Shown here: one piece after another, positions 2,511-37,459 of the stretch
Layout of the letters: every line of letters starts with the position of its first letter
Position numbering within the stretch: position 1 is the first letter of the stretch
Translations under genes and position numbers: made by a program
Notes under the pieces: model-generated
The model's input: the letters and a program-made list of their open reading frames with translations, nothing else
Databases searched by the model: none
What the model was told of the DNA's origin: nothing
Origin: an uncultured Pelagibacteraceae bacterium
GTDB taxonomy: Bacteria; Pseudomonadota; Alphaproteobacteria; Pelagibacterales; Pelagibacteraceae
Reading direction: 5' to 3'
DNA length: 64,000 nucleotides
NCBI GenBank assembly: GCA_902594655.1
Contig: CACJMW010000003.1
Coordinates: forward strand, 12,403-76,402

Positions 2511-4306
2511 TTTAGTAATTTATTGTTTTTAAATAGGTTGCTTAATTCTGAAATCATTACATCACCCAATTCTTGAACATCAGTTATTTTTATTGCACGA
2601 CTATAATATCTAGATACATCATGACCGATACCTATAGCTAATATCTCTACATCATCTTTACTCTCAACAAACTTAACGACTTTTTTTAGATGTTTTTCCA
2701 AATAATCACCAGAATTTACTGATAAGGTTGAGTCATCAACGGGCGCGCCATCAGATATAACCATTAAGATTTTTCTTTCTTCTTTCCTTTTTTTCAATCT
2801 ATTGAATGCCCACATTATAGCTTCGCCATCAATATTCTCTTTAAGTATTCCTTCCTTTAACATTAGACCTAAATTTTTTTTTGATTGTCTCCATTGACTA
2901 TCTGCACTTTTATAAATTATATGCCTTAAATCATTCAAACGTCCTGGATTTTTTAATTTACCTTTTTTATTCCAGTCTTCTCTGGATTTACCACCTTTCC
3001 AATTCTTTGTAGTAAACCCAAGAATTTCGACTTTTACTGAACACCTCTCTAAGGTTCTAGAGAGTATATCCGCACAGAGTGCAGCAATTGTAATTGGCCT
3101 ACCTCTCATTGAACCAGAGTTATCAATTAAAAGACTTACAACAGTATCTTTAAATTCTAGATCTTTTTCTTTTTTAAATGATAAAGAGTTATAAGGATCA
3201 ATAATAATTCTTGGCAATTTAGAACTATCTAATAATCCCTCTTCTAAATCAAAATCCCATGAACGATTTTGTTTCGCCATAAGTTGTCTCTGCAATTTAT
3301 TTGCTAATTTAATAATCAAATCTTTAAAGTTTATTAGTTGATGATCAAGATTTCTTCTTAATTTTAATATTTCATCAGCATCCTCTAAATTTTCTGCCTT
3401 TTCTATTTCATCAAACTCTTTTGAAAAGACTTTGTATTCATTTTTACTTTTTGAATTATTAAGTTTTTGAACAATTTGTTCTGAGCTTTGTTGATCGCTT
3501 TCAGTATCAAAGAGCTGTTCTTCCATTCTAAATTCATTCATTTCAAGCTCTGTTTCAGATATTGATTGATTTTCTGCCTCACTTTGATTTTGATTTTCAT
3601 TTGTCTCACTATCTGGCTCTGAGCTTTGTTGATTATTTTGATCAGAATCTTGTTGGTTCTCCTGTTTATTTTCTTCCTCATCTCTCTCTAAAAAATCTAA
3701 TTCTTTCAAAATTTCAATAAATTTTGAGGAATATAATTCTTGATTTTCTAAATTTTGTTTTAAAAAATTTAGGTGTTTTCCAAAACTCTTTTTAAAATCA
3801 TCTTCCCAAAAACTTAGAATTTTCTCGCAAATTGCGTTAGTTTTAATATTAAAAAAGTTCTTTAGCATATAAATCTCAAAAGCTTCAGTAATTGTTGTAT
3901 CTTCTTTCGATTTAAGCTGATCTTTTCTTTTTAAACTAATTTTATAATTATAATTTTCAAATATATTTTTATTAATTCCTTTTAACATTTGAGTCCCCAG
4001 TTTTTCGTATCGAATTTTTTCTGATATATTGTATAAATTTTTATAAGTAGGTTTTGATGGTAAATTTTTTAAATATATTGATTTATTTGAAAACTTTCTT
4101 TTTAATGCCTCCGAGTCTGTTTCGGCTCTAAATTTTAAAAAATCATACTTATTATTTAAATTATCTAGCTCGAAAAAATTATAATTCTTTGAGCTGCTAT
4201 TTTTTTCATTGAATTTTTGAGTATCTTTAATGTCTTCAGATATTGCTCGAACCGTAGATATTAACGCTTGTTTAAATTTTTCTTTTAAATTCTCGTCTTT
4301 TTTCAT
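2507..4306 (-). CDS. cobT: CobT-family VWA protein
   Basis: Acidic linker, [52 protein letters not shown]. Confidence 0.9.
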
Positions 4307-30935: not shown

Positions 30936-31619
30936 ATGCAGTGGAATAATAAATTTAATTATCCAACCTCAACTAGAGCTCTTTATAACGGAAAAAGACT
31001 TTATGATGTAAATAATGAAAAACTTCCATCCGTGACAACAATATTAGAGGCAACCAAGCCACAAAGTGAAATCGATTCATTAAATCGTTGGAAACAAAAA
31101 GTAGGAGAAAGACAAGCTGAAATAATATCAAGAGAATCTCGTGAACGAGGTTCTTCCATGCACGATTATCTTGAAAAATTCTTACTAGGTAAGCTAAATC
31201 TTGAATTATTAGGCGATAACACCCTCGAAAAAAGAATGGCAGATGAAATAATTGAAAATGGCCTTAGAAATAAAGTAGACGAAATATGGGGGGTAGAATC
31301 AGTTGTAGCTTACCCAGGTAAATACGCCGGAGCAGCTGATTTATTTTGTGTATATGAAAAATATCAAACTTGTGTTGACTTCAAAAATGGAAACAAATTA
31401 CGCAGTGAAAGCTGGAATGATACGTATTATTTGCAATTAGCCGCATATTCCTTGGCCCACAATGTTGTTTATGGAACTAATATTAATCAAGGTGTAATTT
31501 TATTTTGTACTAAAGATATTGTTTTTCAGCGTTTTGTAATTTATGGCGATAAATTAAAAGAATATCAAAATAGATTTTTAGAAAGAGTTGAGCAATATTA
31601 TTCCAGTATAAAAAAATAA
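30936..31619 (+). CDS. PD-(D/E)XK exonuclease (phage-type, Cas4/RecB/MGME1 superfamily)
   Basis: LPSVTTIL, RGSSMH..LE, E.....YAGAADL, VDFK, Y.LQLAAY. No C-terminal Fe-S Cys cluster, so not a canonical Cas4. Confidence 0.82.
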   Translation: MQWNNKFNYPTSTRALYNGKRLYDVNNEKLPSVTTILEATKPQSEIDSLNRWKQKVGERQAEIISRESRERGSSMHDYLEKFLLGKLNLELLGDNTLEKRMADEIIENGLRNKVDEIWGVESVVAYPGKYAGAADLFCVYEKYQTCVDFKNGNKLRSESWNDTYYLQLAAYSLAHNVVYGTNINQGVILFCTKDIVFQRFVIYGDKLKEYQNRFLERVEQYYSSIKK

Positions 31620-31628
31620 AAAAAGTTA

Positions 31629-31657
31629 TTGACTTTTAAAAAACACTTTGATAAAGT
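31629..31657 (+). promoter_or_regulatory. Sigma70-type promoter with extended -10
   Basis: TTGACT (31629-34), 17 nt, TGa-TAAAGT (31649-57); predicted start ~31664. Confidence 0.65.
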
Positions 31658-31663
31658 AAAAAA

Positions 31664-31831
31664 TACTAAATAAATAAGTACTTGTTTAGATCTTGTGATG
31701 TTTAGTCCTTTCTTTTCACTCAATCTAAACAATCTAATTTATCTAGAATACGAAGGTACTAGTTTAGATCCTGAGTTGTGTTTCTTGCTTTCAACTTTCT
31801 TTCTAAACTCTGATTTAGACTAGTCTTCGTA
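31664..31831 (+). ncRNA. Candidate structured RNA or 5' leader: two tandem long hairpins (78-nt period)
   Basis: GTACT(T/A)GTTTAGATC(T/C)TG at 31678 and 31756; TCTAAAC at 31724 and 31802; each GTTTAGA/TCTAAAC pair encloses exactly 33 nt. Confidence 0.6.
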
Positions 31832-31850
31832 AATTAAATATGAGGAAAAT

Positions 31851-32747
31851 ATGTTGGAATATATAGTAATTGGAGCATTAGCAGTTGTAGTTGTTTTTGT
31901 TTTATTAATTTATCAAAAGTTAAATTCAAAAGATAAATCCGAAGATTTTGCAGATATATCAAACAAACTAGATAACATTGATAAAGCTCAATCCAACATT
32001 GAAGAATTAAATATAAAAATCACTGATTTTTCTAACTTATTTAGTGACAAAACTAGAAGAGGGAAAATGGGCAATGAGTATCTAGAAGATATTGTTAAAG
32101 ATTGCTTAATTTCAAAACATTATAATTTTGAACACACTCTTTCAAACGACAAGCGAGTTGATTGTCTTTTGACTTTTAACCAAGATGTATCAAGTGAGAT
32201 TATTTGTATAGATTCTAAATTCTCTTGGGAAAATTATAAAAATTATAACCAAGAAACAGATGAACAAAGACGAAAAAATTACCTTAAAGAATTTGAAAAA
32301 AATATCAGCAAACATGTAGATGATATTTCTGAAAAATATGTAATTACAGGTGAAACAGCCCCTTATGCAATTATGTTTGTTGCTTCAGAAGGAGTTTTTA
32401 GAGCAATAGAGGAAATTTCTGATGATTTTATCAAGGAAGCTCGTAAGAAAAATGTGATTATTACTTCTCCAAGTACACTTTGGAGTTTTCTAAGAACATA
32501 TAGATTATTAATGCAAAATAGAGAAATGTATGAACAAACACATGTTATTCAAAAAGAGGTTGATGGTTTATCTCAAATTATAGAAACTTTCAAAGATAGA
32601 TTTAAAGAGCTGGAGACAAGACATAATAACAACTCTGATACAATTGAAAAATTAAAAACATCAGTAAACAAAATAACAAAAGCTTCAGAAAGAATTCAAA
32701 ATCTTGAAATAAATGAAAATATTAAAAAGAGAGTTGGAGAAAAATAA
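31851..32747 (+). CDS. RmuC-family protein (TM anchor, coiled coil, nuclease-like domain)
   Basis: N-terminal TM; K.RRGKMGN..LE, RVDC, IDSKF, H..DISEKY, MFVASE, SPSTL...L; GAGG SD at 31842. Confidence 0.85.
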   Translation: MLEYIVIGALAVVVVFVLLIYQKLNSKDKSEDFADISNKLDNIDKAQSNIEELNIKITDFSNLFSDKTRRGKMGNEYLEDIVKDCLISKHYNFEHTLSNDKRVDCLLTFNQDVSSEIICIDSKFSWENYKNYNQETDEQRRKNYLKEFEKNISKHVDDISEKYVITGETAPYAIMFVASEGVFRAIEEISDDFIKEARKKNVIITSPSTLWSFLRTYRLLMQNREMYEQTHVIQKEVDGLSQIIETFKDRFKELETRHNNNSDTIEKLKTSVNKITKASERIQNLEINENIKKRVGEK

Positions 32748-34198
32748 TGAAATACGTATTGTATGATATTGAAACAGATCAAGCTGCAACAGATTGGGCT
32801 ACTATTATTGAATTTGGCGCCCTATTATTAGATGAAAATTTTAAAGAAATTGAGCGATTTAGTGCAAGATGTCGATTACCTCAAGACAGAGTTCCTAGCG
32901 CAGCTGCTTTATGTGTTAACCGGTCTTCAATTGATCTACTGACTAAACAAAATTTATCCCACTATCAATTAATTGGCCAGGTGGAACAAAAATTTAAAGA
33001 CTGGTCTAAAACATCGCCGCTGACCTTCATTGGTTTTTCGTCAATAAATTTTGATGAGGAGTGCGTTAGGAAGGAGTTTTTTAAATCTTTAAGAGATCCA
33101 TATTTAACAAATACAAAAGGCAATGTTCGACATGATGCACTCAATATAATTAGAGCAGCATATGCAGTTGACCCAACTGTTTTAAATACTGAATTAAATT
33201 CAAAAGGAAATGTTTCAATGAAATTAGAATCGCTTGGAAGATTAAATGGCTTTGATACAGAGGCGAGCCATTCCGCGCTATTTGATGCTGAATTAACTGG
33301 AAACGTACTTTCAATTGTAAAACAGAAACAACCAGAGTTATGGCAGACTTATTTTAATACAAGTAGCAGACAAAAAGTTGAGGAGATTATCAAAAAAGAA
33401 ACCATGATAACGGTCAATGAATATTTTTATTCTCGTAGTCGCTTGTACCTCTGTGCACCACTGCATCCAAGCAATTGTATACATCCTATTTGGAAATATG
33501 GGCAAGCAGTAGATTTACGTACAGACGTAGAACCTTTGTTTAAATTATCTTATTCAGAACTTAAAAAAGAAATGAACAAAGCCCCTAAATTTTTAAGAAC
33601 TATTCGTTCTAATAAAGCGCCAATCATAATTGATGCAAGTTATGGAATGAAAGTTGAACCTTATAATGCAATAGGCCGAGATCTATTAAAAAAAAGAGCT
33701 GAATTAGTAAAATCTAATGCAAAATTTGCTGAAGATGTGTGCAATATTTTAAGAGAAAATGCAGAAGAAAAAGCTGAAACAGATTCTCAGGTAGATTTAG
33801 AGCCTGAAGAACAGATCTACAAAGGATTTACACCTGACAAAGATAAATTTCTTTTTCCAAAATGGCATGCAGCTCCTTGGGATGAAAAATTCAAAATGTT
33901 AGATAAATTTGAAGATAAAAGAATGAAAATATTTGGTGAACAAGTCATTTTTAATGAAGCTCCAGATGTATTACCTGAACCAGTTTATAAGAAAATTAAA
34001 AAGAAAATTGCAGATAGAATTTTAAGTATGGGTAATGAAAAGTGGGGGACTATTGCAAAACTCCAAAAAGAGATTGATGATTTAAGAGAAAAAGATGACA
34101 TGATGTTTGCGTTTAAATCAAAGGATGAAAAATTAAAATTTTTAGATGAAATTGATCAATATGGAAACTTTTTAGAGGAGAAATATTCTAAGATTTAA
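32747..34198 (+). CDS. Exonuclease I (SbcB-like DEDDh 3'-5' ssDNA exonuclease)
   Basis: ExoI YDIET, ExoII NFDEE..R, S.KLE.L...NG, ExoIII HSALFD, NKAP, EEQIY.GF. Confidence 0.85.
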   Translation: MKYVLYDIETDQAATDWATIIEFGALLLDENFKEIERFSARCRLPQDRVPSAAALCVNRSSIDLLTKQNLSHYQLIGQVEQKFKDWSKTSPLTFIGFSSINFDEECVRKEFFKSLRDPYLTNTKGNVRHDALNIIRAAYAVDPTVLNTELNSKGNVSMKLESLGRLNGFDTEASHSALFDAELTGNVLSIVKQKQPELWQTYFNTSSRQKVEEIIKKETMITVNEYFYSRSRLYLCAPLHPSNCIHPIWKYGQAVDLRTDVEPLFKLSYSELKKEMNKAPKFLRTIRSNKAPIIIDASYGMKVEPYNAIGRDLLKKRAELVKSNAKFAEDVCNILRENAEEKAETDSQVDLEPEEQIYKGFTPDKDKFLFPKWHAAPWDEKFKMLDKFEDKRMKIFGEQVIFNEAPDVLPEPVYKKIKKKIADRILSMGNEKWGTIAKLQKEIDDLREKDDMMFAFKSKDEKLKFLDEIDQYGNFLEEKYSKI

Positions 34199-34200
34199 TT

Positions 34201-34641
34201 ATGATTAAAAAACTTTTTAAACTTTTTACAAAGAAAAAAAGAGTTAAGAAAAAAGAAATCAAGAAAACAGAAAAAAAAGCAGAAGTTATCAATTTCATCA
34301 ATAAGTCAAAAGATAACAATAAAATCCAAACAGAAAAAATGGAAAAGAGTAAAATGGATGATCTAGCAAAAGAACTAGTGGAGACTTATTTAAAGGCTTC
34401 TAGAAAAAGCTTTTTAGATATGGGATACTGCTTTTATATATTTTTATATAGATTGTTACAGAGAATGATATTTCAGTTTAGCTATCCTCTTTATCGTCAT
34501 TATTTAAAAGCAACAACAAAAGAAATCTTAAACAATCATAAAGAATGGCTCCATGAATTTAAAGAATGGGATGAAGCACCTAAAGAAGGTAAATTAATTG
34601 GAGAAAAAAAACCAGATAATGAAAATGATACATTGCATTAA
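34201..34641 (+). CDS. Hypothetical protein
   Basis: 146-aa ORF 2 nt after the exonuclease stop; Lys-rich N-terminus, aromatic helical core, C-terminal TLH. Confidence 0.6.
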   Translation: MIKKLFKLFTKKKRVKKKEIKKTEKKAEVINFINKSKDNNKIQTEKMEKSKMDDLAKELVETYLKASRKSFLDMGYCFYIFLYRLLQRMIFQFSYPLYRHYLKATTKEILNNHKEWLHEFKEWDEAPKEGKLIGEKKPDNENDTLH

Positions 34642-34673
34642 TTTATGATAAAGTAATTGATACTAAATAGATT

Positions 34674-35798
34674 ATGAAACAACAGATTAAATGCCCCCAT
34701 TGTAATAAAGTATTTCCAATTGAAGAAAGCTTAAAACATGAAGCACAAGAGTATCGCAAAAAACTTCAAAAAGAAGAACAATTAAAGTCTAAAAAAAGAG
34801 AGCAAGAACTAGAAAATAAACTAAATCAAAAGTTAGAAAAACAACAACAAGAGCACCAGAAACAATTAGAAAAAATAAAAATAGATGAGCAGAAAAAGAT
34901 AAAAGAAGAAGCAAAAAAACAAGCCACAGAAGAACTTAAAGAAATTAAAAAAGAAAGCCAAGAAAACGAGAAAAGAATAAAATTAGAAGTAGAGAAAAAA
35001 GCTAAAAAAGAAATTGATTCCTTAAAAGAAGAAAAAGAAAAAATAAAAAAAGCTCACCAAATTGATATTGAAAGAATGAGAAAAAAAGCAGAAGAAGCAG
35101 CTAGAGTGGCCAGTCAAAGCCCTGTTGAAAGAAAAGGTGAGGTTCAAGAAGAATTATTAGAAGAGTATCTTAAAAAAGAGTTTCCCCAGGATAAATTTGA
35201 ACCTGTTAAAAAAGGTAAACGAGGAGCAGATGTTATTCAATTTGTTCAATCCAAAAATCAAACCATTGGTAAAATGCTACATGAAAGTAAAGATGTGCTT
35301 AATTTTGATGAGAAATGGGTATCAAAATTATTAGATGATATGTCAACGGAAGACGCAATTGTTGGATTTATTTATACAAAAGTGATGCCAAAAAAATCTA
35401 ATAATTATGTGGAAGAAAGAGAAAATGGAAAAATTATAATTTGTTGTGAAAGACCTGTTTTAAGGCAATTAGTAGCCACACATAGAAAACTCATTCAACA
35501 ATTGAATAAAAATCAATTAAGCAAAAATGATGTTTCCGCAAAAGCTCAAAAACTTTATAATTATATAAATGGTAATGAATTTAGAATTCAATATAGCAAA
35601 ACCATTAATGGAATTAAAAAAGAAGGTCTACAAATTGACAAAGATGAAAGATCATACCAACTACAAATTAAGAATCGAAAAAGTAATTTTGACGAAAATA
35701 AAAAAAATATAAGATCAATTATTACATCCATTTTAATTAATAGTGACTTATCCGAAGACTTATTAGATGTGGATGAAGACAATTTAATGCTTGATTAA
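34674..35798 (+). CDS. DUF2130-like coiled-coil protein with N-terminal CxxC and restriction-endonuclease-like C-domain
   Basis: IKCPHC, long E/K/Q coiled coil, KGEVQE..LE, KG.RGADVIQ, LHESK....F...W..KL.DD. Confidence 0.8.
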
Positions 35799-35824
35799 TT
35801 TATTTTTATTTCTATAAAAAACAT

Positions 35825-36194
35825 ATGGCAACGATTAGTGTTACAGATGATAATTTTGATACAGAAGTCATTAAAGCTGGAAAACCAGTCATAGTTGACT
35901 TTTGGGCTGAATGGTGTCGATAGTCCCCTTGGTTTTTCCAGGGGGACTATCGATACAAAAAACTGAGGACCTTGTAAGATGATCGGACCGATCCTCGAGG
36001 AACTTTCAGATGAAATGTCAGCTCAAGTCACTATTGCAAAACATAACATTGATAATGAACCTAATACACCGACCAAGTACGGCGTAAGAGGAATTCCAAC
36101 TATGTTACTGTTTAAAGGCGGTGAACTTAAAGCTACAAAAGTTGGAGCAACAACTAAATCAGATTTAAAATCTTGGATAGAGCAGAATATTTAA
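35825..36194 (+). CDS. trxA: Thioredoxin, interrupted by a 49-nt insert at the active site (recoded gene or recent pseudogene)
   Basis: 35825-35917 encodes [31 protein letters not shown]; 35967-36194 encodes [12 protein letters not shown]...YGVRGIPT...NI*. Removing 35918-35966 gives a 106-aa WCGPC thioredoxin. Confidence 0.92.
35914..35966. repeat. 19-bp hairpin insert within trxA
   Basis: GTGTCGATAGTCCCCTTGG-TTTTT-CCAGGGGGACTATCGATAC (35914-35956; two G:U pairs), followed by AAAAAACTGA. Confidence 0.93.
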
Positions 36195-37459
36195 TTAAGA
36201 TTTAAAACTTCTCCAACCATATAAAGCGAACCTGCAAAAAGACAAATTGTTTCTTGATGTTTAGAGTTTATTTTAACTGCTTCTTTAATTGATTGAGATA
36301 GATTTATTTCCATTTTTAAAGCATTCAATTTATCTTTAAATTCTTCTTTTGAAATTGATCCCACCTGATTAGGTATATCAATCAAAGTTATTGATTTAAC
36401 TATACCTTTAAAATGCTTCATAAATTCATAATGTTCTTTATCTTTCATCATTCCACAGATTAAGTGAACATCTTGTTGTTGCTGTTTTATCCAATTGGAA
36501 ATAGATATACTCGAGCTTTCATTATGACCTCCATCAATAATTAATCTATTTTTGCCACAAATATTTTTTAGTTTACCAAAGTGTAATTCCTGCAATCTTC
36601 CTTTAAGTTCAATATTAGTAATACCTTTTTTTATATGTTCATCTTTAACATTAAACATCTTTCTTGATGCAGCTATAGAAGTACTGATATTATATAGTTG
36701 GTGATCTCCTAGTAAATTTGGCTCTGGTAGTATTATCTCACTAATATTATCTTGATAATGTATAAATCCATTTTCTTGCTTTGAAACATTAAAGTCTTTT
36801 CCAAAAAAATATTTGTTAGATGAGTTATTTACAAGAGCATTTTCTATTTTGTCTCTTATATTTTCATTAATTTGTCTATTTACAAATATATTTGAGTTAA
36901 GAAGCTTAGATGTTTTTTCATAAATTATACTGTCTATAGTTTTATTTTTGAGCCATTGTAAATGGTCGGTATGTATCACCCCAACTAAGCTCATAAGATT
37001 ATTTTTAAAAACATTTGTACTATCAAATTGAAAAAAAAGACCAGCCTCTATTATGTTTACATTATCTTTAAAATTTTCTGCATATTTTAAAAAAGCACAA
37101 GTTAAAATTTCAAAAATGCTTGCATTATCATCTCCTAGCACTTTTTCTATGTAACTTAATATTTCAATAAGATCTTCTTCTTTAATTTCCTCATCATTAA
37201 ATATAAATCTTTCAGTAAAAGATTGGAGGTGAGGTGAGGTATATAAATTACATTTGTACCCTGCTTTATTCAATATAGATTTGAGACTGTAAGCCATACT
37301 TGCTTTGGCATTTGTACCAACTACATTAATAACATTTCTTATTTTACCTTGTGGATTCCCAAGTTTTTTAAGGAGGTTAAATGTTCGATCTAAAGATAAA
37401 TCAATTTTACGTTTATGATGCCTCTCTAGTTTGGATATTAATATCTGAAGTTTGTTCAT
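36191..37459 (-). CDS. folC: Folylpolyglutamate synthase/dihydrofolate synthase
   Basis: VGTNAKAS (variant of GTNGKGS), YTSPHL....ER, FE.LT, IEAGL....DSTNV, DGGHN, GSLY.VG. Confidence 0.9.
   Translation of the reverse strand: MNKLQILISKLERHHKRKIDLSLDRTFNLLKKLGNPQGKIRNVINVVGTNAKASMAYSLKSILNKAGYKCNLYTSPHLQSFTERFIFNDEEIKEEDLIEILSYIEKVLGDDNASIFEILTCAFLKYAENFKDNVNIIEAGLFFQFDSTNVFKNNLMSLVGVIHTDHLQWLKNKTIDSIIYEKTSKLLNSNIFVNRQINENIRDKIENALVNNSSNKYFFGKDFNVSKQENGFIHYQDNISEIILPEPNLLGDHQLYNISTSIAASRKMFNVKDEHIKKGITNIELKGRLQELHFGKLKNICGKNRLIIDGGHNESSSISISNWIKQQQQDVHLICGMMKDKEHYEFMKHFKGIVKSITLIDIPNQVGSISKEEFKDKLNALKMEINLSQSIKEAVKINSKHQETICLFAGSLYMVGEVLNLN

Follow-up and report, generated by a model that had tools for sequence, protein, structure and literature searches.

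Programmed translational bypassing is listed, in the accessible literature, only for T4-like phages, for candidates in Streptomyces phages and for yeast mitochondria, and earlier reports of bypassing in bacteria are there called spurious or unconfirmed. For phage T4 gene 60, the available part of one study places a 5′ stem-loop 9 nt before the take-off codon, proposes that this stem-loop pushes the ribosome on refolding and argues that refolding mRNA can place a ribosome without a codon match (10.1101/2024.12.09.627546). T4-type cassettes, in the available part of another, have take-off and landing codons read by one tRNA, and a GGG/GGA pair is reported in a Proteus gene 60 homologue (10.1101/2022.08.31.505936). 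Here we describe a 64,000-nucleotide stretch of DNA (the window) from an uncultured SAR11 bacterium of the Pelagibacteraceae (GenBank assembly GCA_902594655.1, contig CACJMW010000003.1, positions 12,403 to 76,402, forward strand), in which the thioredoxin gene trxA is split within its catalytic motif by a 49-nt, hairpin-forming insert. Judged from sequence and folding, programmed bypassing of this insert, yielding a full 106-residue thioredoxin, is the probable explanation. A literature search, limited mostly to open papers without preprint supplements, found no published account of such an element in trxA.

The 5′ part of trxA (35825..35917; plus strand, as for all features of the window given here) consists of 31 codons ending in DFWAEWC and matches TIGR01068 at positions 2–27, while the 3′ part (35967..36194) consists of 75 codons, from GPCK to NI, plus TAA, and matches PF00085 (E 8e-19). 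Joined, the two halves encode 106 amino acids, and the break falls at WC|GPC. The insert between them (35918..35966), a putative coding gap, is missing from insert-free relatives and opens with the rare arginine codon CGA followed by an in-frame stop, TAG (35918..35923; the stop is TAA or TGA in relatives, and the pair reads TGA TAG in the allele L059). A 19-bp covarying stem-loop (35914..35956) is formed by the insert and the TGT codon of the catalytic cysteine (35915..35917), a putative take-off codon that lies in its 5′ arm; it is followed by an A-rich, G-free unpaired spacer (35957..35963) and by TGA (35964..35966; AGT, AGC, AGA or TTT in relatives), the candidate landing triplet. An earlier note on this DNA, made from the sequence alone, had described the 49-nt insert starting CGA TAG, the 19-bp stem and the joined 106-residue protein, all of which sequence and folding confirm; the 49-nt spacing of flanking hexamers, which it had also offered as evidence, follows from the insert length and adds nothing separate.

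An assembly artefact is ruled out by the presence of the insert in independent DNA sequencing runs, namely X2 (a 771-nt contig covering 35600-36149 with one difference) and X5 (a 127-nt contig covering 35888-36013 with none), either of which could be the source sample of the assembly. These runs also bear on the possibility of phase variation, in which some members of the population would lose the hairpin from their DNA and only they would make thioredoxin. Strong palindromes can be deleted in replication, and insert-free sister alleles exist; however, X2 and X5 hold no joint of 35917 to 35967 (contigs drop rare variants), no direct repeat would restore TGT GGA (deletion at the 2-nt TG repeat would create a TGA stop), the surroundings of trxA have no recognisable recombinase gene and the 5′ stem-loop described below would be left unexplained. 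We regard such excision as very improbable.

The insert is not a singleton, having been found in 11 other Pelagibacteraceae genomes and seven metagenome contigs. A two-sided pattern (WA[EPADQH]WC...GPCK, 35–65 nt between) gave 25 matches in the GTDB collection, comprising the 11 Pelagibacteraceae genomes, which carry a hairpin insert at this position, and 14 matches outside this family, four of which passed a thioredoxin-flank filter without the element and ten of which failed it. A 5′-side pattern matched eight metagenomic stretches, seven of them trxA with the element (one truncated, L035). There are 18 complete insert alleles with 13 distinct elements. In a protein search with the insert translated in the +1 frame, 22 of 33 clusters were insert-derived; GPCK is kept in 21 of these, and Gly is preceded by Ser in 19, Arg in two and Phe in one. 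The other 11 have an unbroken WCGPC and a 3′ half near-identical to that of insert alleles, and are either sister alleles or assembly chimeras. Clusters P0012, P0015 and P0017-P0020 represent a further element type (NGAASPL...SSVTKKS-GPCK), seen in +1-frame translation only, in which the first gap codon ends in GC. Clusters P0025, P0026, P0028-P0030 and P0033 are thioredoxins of 121–161 aa, extended at the N-terminus and almost identical in their 3′ half to insert-bearing SAR11 alleles; they are a real longer form or assembly chimeras. Three scans of viral contigs (at least 120, 37 and 104 stretches) showed no hairpin-split thioredoxin among the matches listed.

The main stem is exceptional in its stability: the fold of 35895-35975 reaches −37.6 kcal/mol (z −5.8), and none of 200 shuffles was as stable. 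A scan of the assembly found eight hairpins at ≤−20 kcal/mol, of which the trxA insert was the strongest by far (−36.2), the other seven lying at gene ends with −20 to −22 kcal/mol. Across the elements, eight of the 19 pairs have changed on both sides, the sort of compensatory change that the earlier note had named as a sign of function. In all, 99.2% of 247 cells are paired, a level reached by none of 500 shuffles (slid-partner controls, 37–45%); these counts come from an unfitted MAFFT alignment of related sequences and so do not amount to a probability. The apical loops are mostly U-rich, variable and far from the stop codon. No intrinsic terminator (hairpin plus U run) occurs on either strand of 35700-36300. 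The lone Rfam match (E 2.5) is a chance one, as is an inverted look-alike (19/21) inside a gene at 3993-4013 of the window (E 0.65).

All 13 elements have a stop as their second codon (TAG in ten, TAA in two and TGA in one), each with a matching 3′ arm, and the first codon is CGA in 12 and TGA in one. Element lengths are 48, 49, 51 and 52 nt and thus fall into two frames, so that the length of 3n+1 anticipated by the earlier note holds for most elements but not for the three of 48 or 51 nt. No single frameshift or readthrough fits such lengths; bypassing or excision fits better. Other kinds of recoding, whether readthrough or frameshifting, a restart at ATG 35979 giving a split protein, or selenocysteine at TGA, might be entertained because GAGGA stands 9 nt before that ATG in the window and two protein clusters are open in frame. 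Yet the elements occupy two frames, 16–17 extra residues would sit inside CXXC, Gln replaces the Met of ATG 35979 in many alleles and selenocysteine is rejected, with no selB over the cut-off in any of five genomes; we give these routes hardly any credence.

RNA libraries bear on a second kind of excision, in which an unknown nuclease-ligase removes the insert from mRNA as a stem-loop micro-intron. Such removal would leave length free of frame, and pairing in the stem places the two junctions close together. One 151-nt piece with the whole insert and no differences occurs in each of the metatranscriptome runs X17 and X19, which come from two studies, and a third RNA run, X15, has part of a variant insert; runs X16 and X20 were without the insert and uninformative. 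Although this RNA evidence is shallow, no insert-skipping joint with allele-specific flanks appeared in the seven DNA and RNA runs examined. Furthermore, the insert has no Rfam match, its junction dinucleotides are not conserved, and the in-frame stop, kept as three different codons, implies that the insert is reached by ribosomes. Removal from mRNA therefore appears improbable.

A feature beyond the earlier note is a predicted 5′ stem-loop within the coding sequence (35862..35904), found in insert alleles only. It takes the same register in all 17 insert alleles that have the 5′ flank, at −11.1 to −20.1 kcal/mol (z −1.4 to −4.1 against synonymous recodings), whereas 29 insert-free alleles fold this region to just −1.9 to −9.9 kcal/mol; the stem cells are paired in 230 of 238 cases in insert alleles and in 110 of 170 in ten insert-free alleles. 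The structure ends 10 nt before TGT and 13 nt before CGA. Insert alleles have residues in common that might act as a nascent-peptide signal, but the changes behind them also build this stem.

Both halves of the gene have low ratios of non-synonymous to synonymous change (dN/dS), as the earlier note had foreseen for a functional gene. Within groups sharing an element type, dN/dS for the 3′ half is 0–0.20, and the window and L051 differ there by 20 synonymous changes and one non-synonymous; the short 5′ half gives values mostly <0.25, although two pairs with a single synonymous change come near 1 (the dN/dS calculations and the trees exclude L059, and the trees also exclude the near-copies L039, L050 and L053). 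No second classic trxA was found in nine insert-bearing genomes, one of them 97% complete, whereas the earlier note had named another intact copy, beside a singleton insert, as grounds for refutation; this assembly has two other thioredoxin-fold genes, with CSTC and CAPC motifs and hydrophobic N-termini. Thioredoxin reductase is intact in four of four insert-bearing genomes. The insert is a real, recurrent and structured one in a core bacterial gene that is kept under selection.

It is unlikely, in our judgement, that the insert inactivates or nearly silences trxA and persists as a selfish or selected null allele (denying a phage its host factor or DNA target, for example) that spreads by recombination while glutaredoxin covers the loss. 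T7 polymerase needs host thioredoxin. The insert is rare and patchy (three of 401 genus genomes drawn), it sits on divergent backgrounds (three label changes on the distal tree described below), landing matches are poor, trxA of L059 has been struck twice, a few variants look decayed and glutaredoxins are present in all four genomes. But a null allele needs no covarying stem, no three forms of in-frame stop, no 5′ stem-loop and no matched Gly pair. Within the window group, almost all differences near the insert are synonymous, and none of the 18 complete alleles bears a further lesion, the second hairpin of L059 excepted. The accessible part of PMC3997047 held nothing on the use of host thioredoxin by pelagiphages.

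The element differs at two of 49 sites between alleles with a synonymous-site difference of 32–52%, so that it must be constrained or have spread recently, if not both. A 24-row tree built from the distal 3′ half requires three changes of the insert label, at least two of them forced by well-supported branches, and insert alleles have some 55 nt upstream of the insert in common, from which it seems that the element moves with its 5′ flank. Spread of the element plus this ~55-nt flank between SAR11 lineages by recombination is likely on the sequences at hand. As candidate mobilisers, a linked homing nuclease was rejected, the upstream PD-(D/E)XK gene being core (in 335 of 401 genus genomes), and so was an HNH nuclease, the sole HNH gene being unlinked in five of five genomes. 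A covariance model of the element (R1) gave full matches only at trxA (in two genomes) among 151 genomes; it also scored weak intergenic hairpins in 14. Terminator-like intergenic hairpins of SAR11 with a CCCC/GGGG core and a weak model score are seen in L256-L268, at ~1501-1532 of each. Such hairpins are a possible origin of the trxA stem. Inspection of genome G522 by eye (no folding) revealed no additional CCCC/GGGG insert of the trxA kind.

Under programmed bypassing, the GC-rich stem would slow a ribosome whose peptidyl-tRNA-Cys pairs with UGU and whose A site contains the rare CGA (a stop in one relative). CGA occurs at 1.5 per 1000 codons (355 in 236,361) and is the fourth rarest codon; tRNA-Arg(UCG) and tRNA-Arg(ACG) are encoded in this assembly at G000:C1:93993-94069 and C2:24261-24337, and all CGN codons together amount to ~3 per 1000. 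The stop one codon past CGA would end translation by any ribosome that decodes CGA. Refolding of the 5′ stem-loop and then of the main stem behind the ribosome could provide a forward push, after which the ribosome may settle 6–10 nt beyond the base of the stem, where the sole tail G (at −2 in 11 of 12 elements compared) would pair with the middle C of the anticodon, on UGA in the window. Translation would resume at GGA to give WCGPC, with landing set by geometry more than by codon match. The last triplet of the insert is TGA in four elements, AGT in three, AGA in three, AGC in two and TTT in one. If bypassing occurs, take-off from Cys giving WCGPC is the probable form; take-off from Arg with landing on GGN, giving WCRPC, is a weaker candidate, and Arg take-off with landing one triplet earlier (WCRGPC) an improbable one. 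If Cys-tRNA occupies the P site, it is Arg-tRNA on CGA that would be slow, so that nothing supports the cysteine- or redox-responsive control suggested earlier. No tRNA-Cys gene was found in this 71% complete assembly.

Allele L059 (genome G522, titled a single isolate) carries a second 49-nt hairpin insert in trxA, at YGVR|GIP (L059:4469-4517, G522:C15, minus strand), known from this single record and absent from 401 family genomes (G522 not among them). Its layout is GGG, the very rare CGC (0.22 per 1000 codons in the window's genome), a stem of −29 kcal/mol, an 8-nt G-free tail and GGA, which makes a matched Gly pair. In both types of insert the first codon is a rare CGN or a stop, and the inferred landing triplet lies 6–10 nt past the stem in each; this likeness favours Cys take-off for the first insert.

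The layout of the trxA element resembles the 50-nt coding gap of T4 gene 60 and the MobA-cassette homologues of that gene in having a stop or hungry codon directly after take-off (CGA or TGA, then a stop in 13/13), a conserved stem-loop whose 5′ arm contains the take-off codon and a predicted 5′ stem-loop 10 nt before TGT, against 9 nt in the accessible account of T4. That account puts 26 nt between the loop of the 5′ stem-loop and take-off, whereas 34 nt lie between them here. Moreover, the trxA stem is longer and GC-rich, without a UUCG tip; there is no mini-Shine–Dalgarno (SD) sequence; a rare codon precedes the stop; the host is a chromosomal core gene rather than a phage topoisomerase gene, with no adjacent homing endonuclease; and a take-off/landing pair read by the same tRNA is absent from the 13 elements, occurring in the second insert of L059 alone (GGG/GGA). 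The byps of Magnusiomyces capitatus mitochondria, as far as the available text goes, are likewise hairpin inserts, of 27–55 nt, with a slow A-site codon and an imperfect take-off/landing match, but they number 81 in 12 genes where we see one copy per genome in one gene, and they lack the setting of a free-living bacterium in which the slow codon has a cognate tRNA and a stop behind it (PMC5009743, PMC7026636). They also seem context-independent, unlike this element with its conserved 5′ structure. Candidates in the terminase gene of Streptomyces phage Hau3 are similar in that the gap lies in a conserved part of a needed gene and starts with a rare codon, and that control through tRNA supply is possible; they differ in being in a phage gene, with 10-nt gaps, UUA, a landing codon plus SD signal and some experimental support (PMC10732093, in the portion available). 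Failing the defining tests of both T4 gene 60 cassettes and byps, the trxA element is a member of neither.

Several observations weigh against bypassing, which nevertheless remains the best-supported interpretation, as the earlier note had proposed. The hungry codon of byps, which it cited, is unassigned and without a tRNA, whereas CGA has a cognate, tRNA-Arg(UCG), in this genome, alongside tRNA-Arg(ACG): some ribosomes should read CGA, stop and yield a 32-residue dead end. No element has a perfect Cys landing codon (TGY); TGA, AGT, AGC and TTT match TGT at two of three positions and AGA (three of the 13 elements) at one, while the middle C of the anticodon is common to tRNA-Cys and tRNA-Arg and the tail of the second insert in L059 has no G at all. 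No mini-SD was seen 5–7 nt before landing (the tail G being only at −2), nor any short stable tip of CC-UUCG-GG or GNRA type that could fold in the A site, and the first 60 nt of the 3′ side, where a gene 60 cassette would have its forward-slippage stem-loop, show no consistent structure (z −2.4 to +1.5). Strong stem makes up most of the gap, and bypassing ribosomes are reported, in the accessible part of 10.1101/2024.12.09.627546, to be poor at melting such structure. Changes in the 5′ stem mostly affect one side, and the structure may in part reflect common descent. Near-identical 3′ halves also occur without the insert (11 of 33 clusters, some of them perhaps assembly chimeras), so that insert alleles could owe part of their low dN/dS and of their 5′ stem-loop to recombination. 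The insert is rare, no linked mobilising nuclease was found and, given the glutaredoxins, trxA may be dispensable. The GTDB pattern required GPCK, so that decayed alleles were invisible to it; one protein cluster has GTCK, and two (P0010 and P0021) have lost the stop and are open in frame, implying that the stop is not always needed or that these alleles are decayed or misassembled. Lastly, the RNA records are single 151-nt pieces (depth 2), for which DNA carry-over is possible.

The trxA gene overlaps the stop of the convergent folC by 4 nt at its 3′ end and is flanked on its other side by an sbcB-like/RmuC/DUF2130 stretch; the 29 insert-free relatives compared share this setting, with sbcB-like or RmuC-like genes upstream and folC downstream. 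Between hisG and trxA (30936-35798 of the window) lie PD-(D/E)XK-like, RmuC, exonuclease I-like, unknown and DUF2130 genes, and since gene order and extra genes vary among relatives, this interval contains otherwise common genes in a variable, shuffled arrangement. The promoter-like TTGATT-16-TATAAA of the earlier note (35791..35818) can be seen by eye, ending 6 nt before the ATG, but a consensus promoter scan made no call there (it called three other sites, against 2.7 expected). The spacing between the −10-like hexamer and the ATG (6 nt; 35791-35825 of the window) is similar in close relatives, and by its shortness suggests that the trxA mRNA may be leaderless. The insert-free trxA of L003 reads WADWCGPCVSI, with an odd sequence directly after the motif, at the insert site.

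A fuller picture is offered tentatively, and is on balance doubtful: SAR11 bypassing would need no matching landing codon, being driven over a set distance by two hairpins that refold behind the ribosome; thioredoxin output would depend on tRNA-Arg supply through the rare Arg codon and the stop behind it; and trxA would twice have taken up self-skipping hairpins, probably derived from terminator-like stems, as protection from a targeting nuclease or phage. The 13 natural variants, together with the second insert and its matched Gly codons, form a series for probing landing without a codon match. Annotation takes genes of this kind for pseudogenes or gives them proteins in the wrong frame, as the 22 database clusters illustrate. 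If our interpretation is true, bypassing extends to bacterial chromosomes, and does so in a core gene of a marine bacterium that is abundant and free-living.
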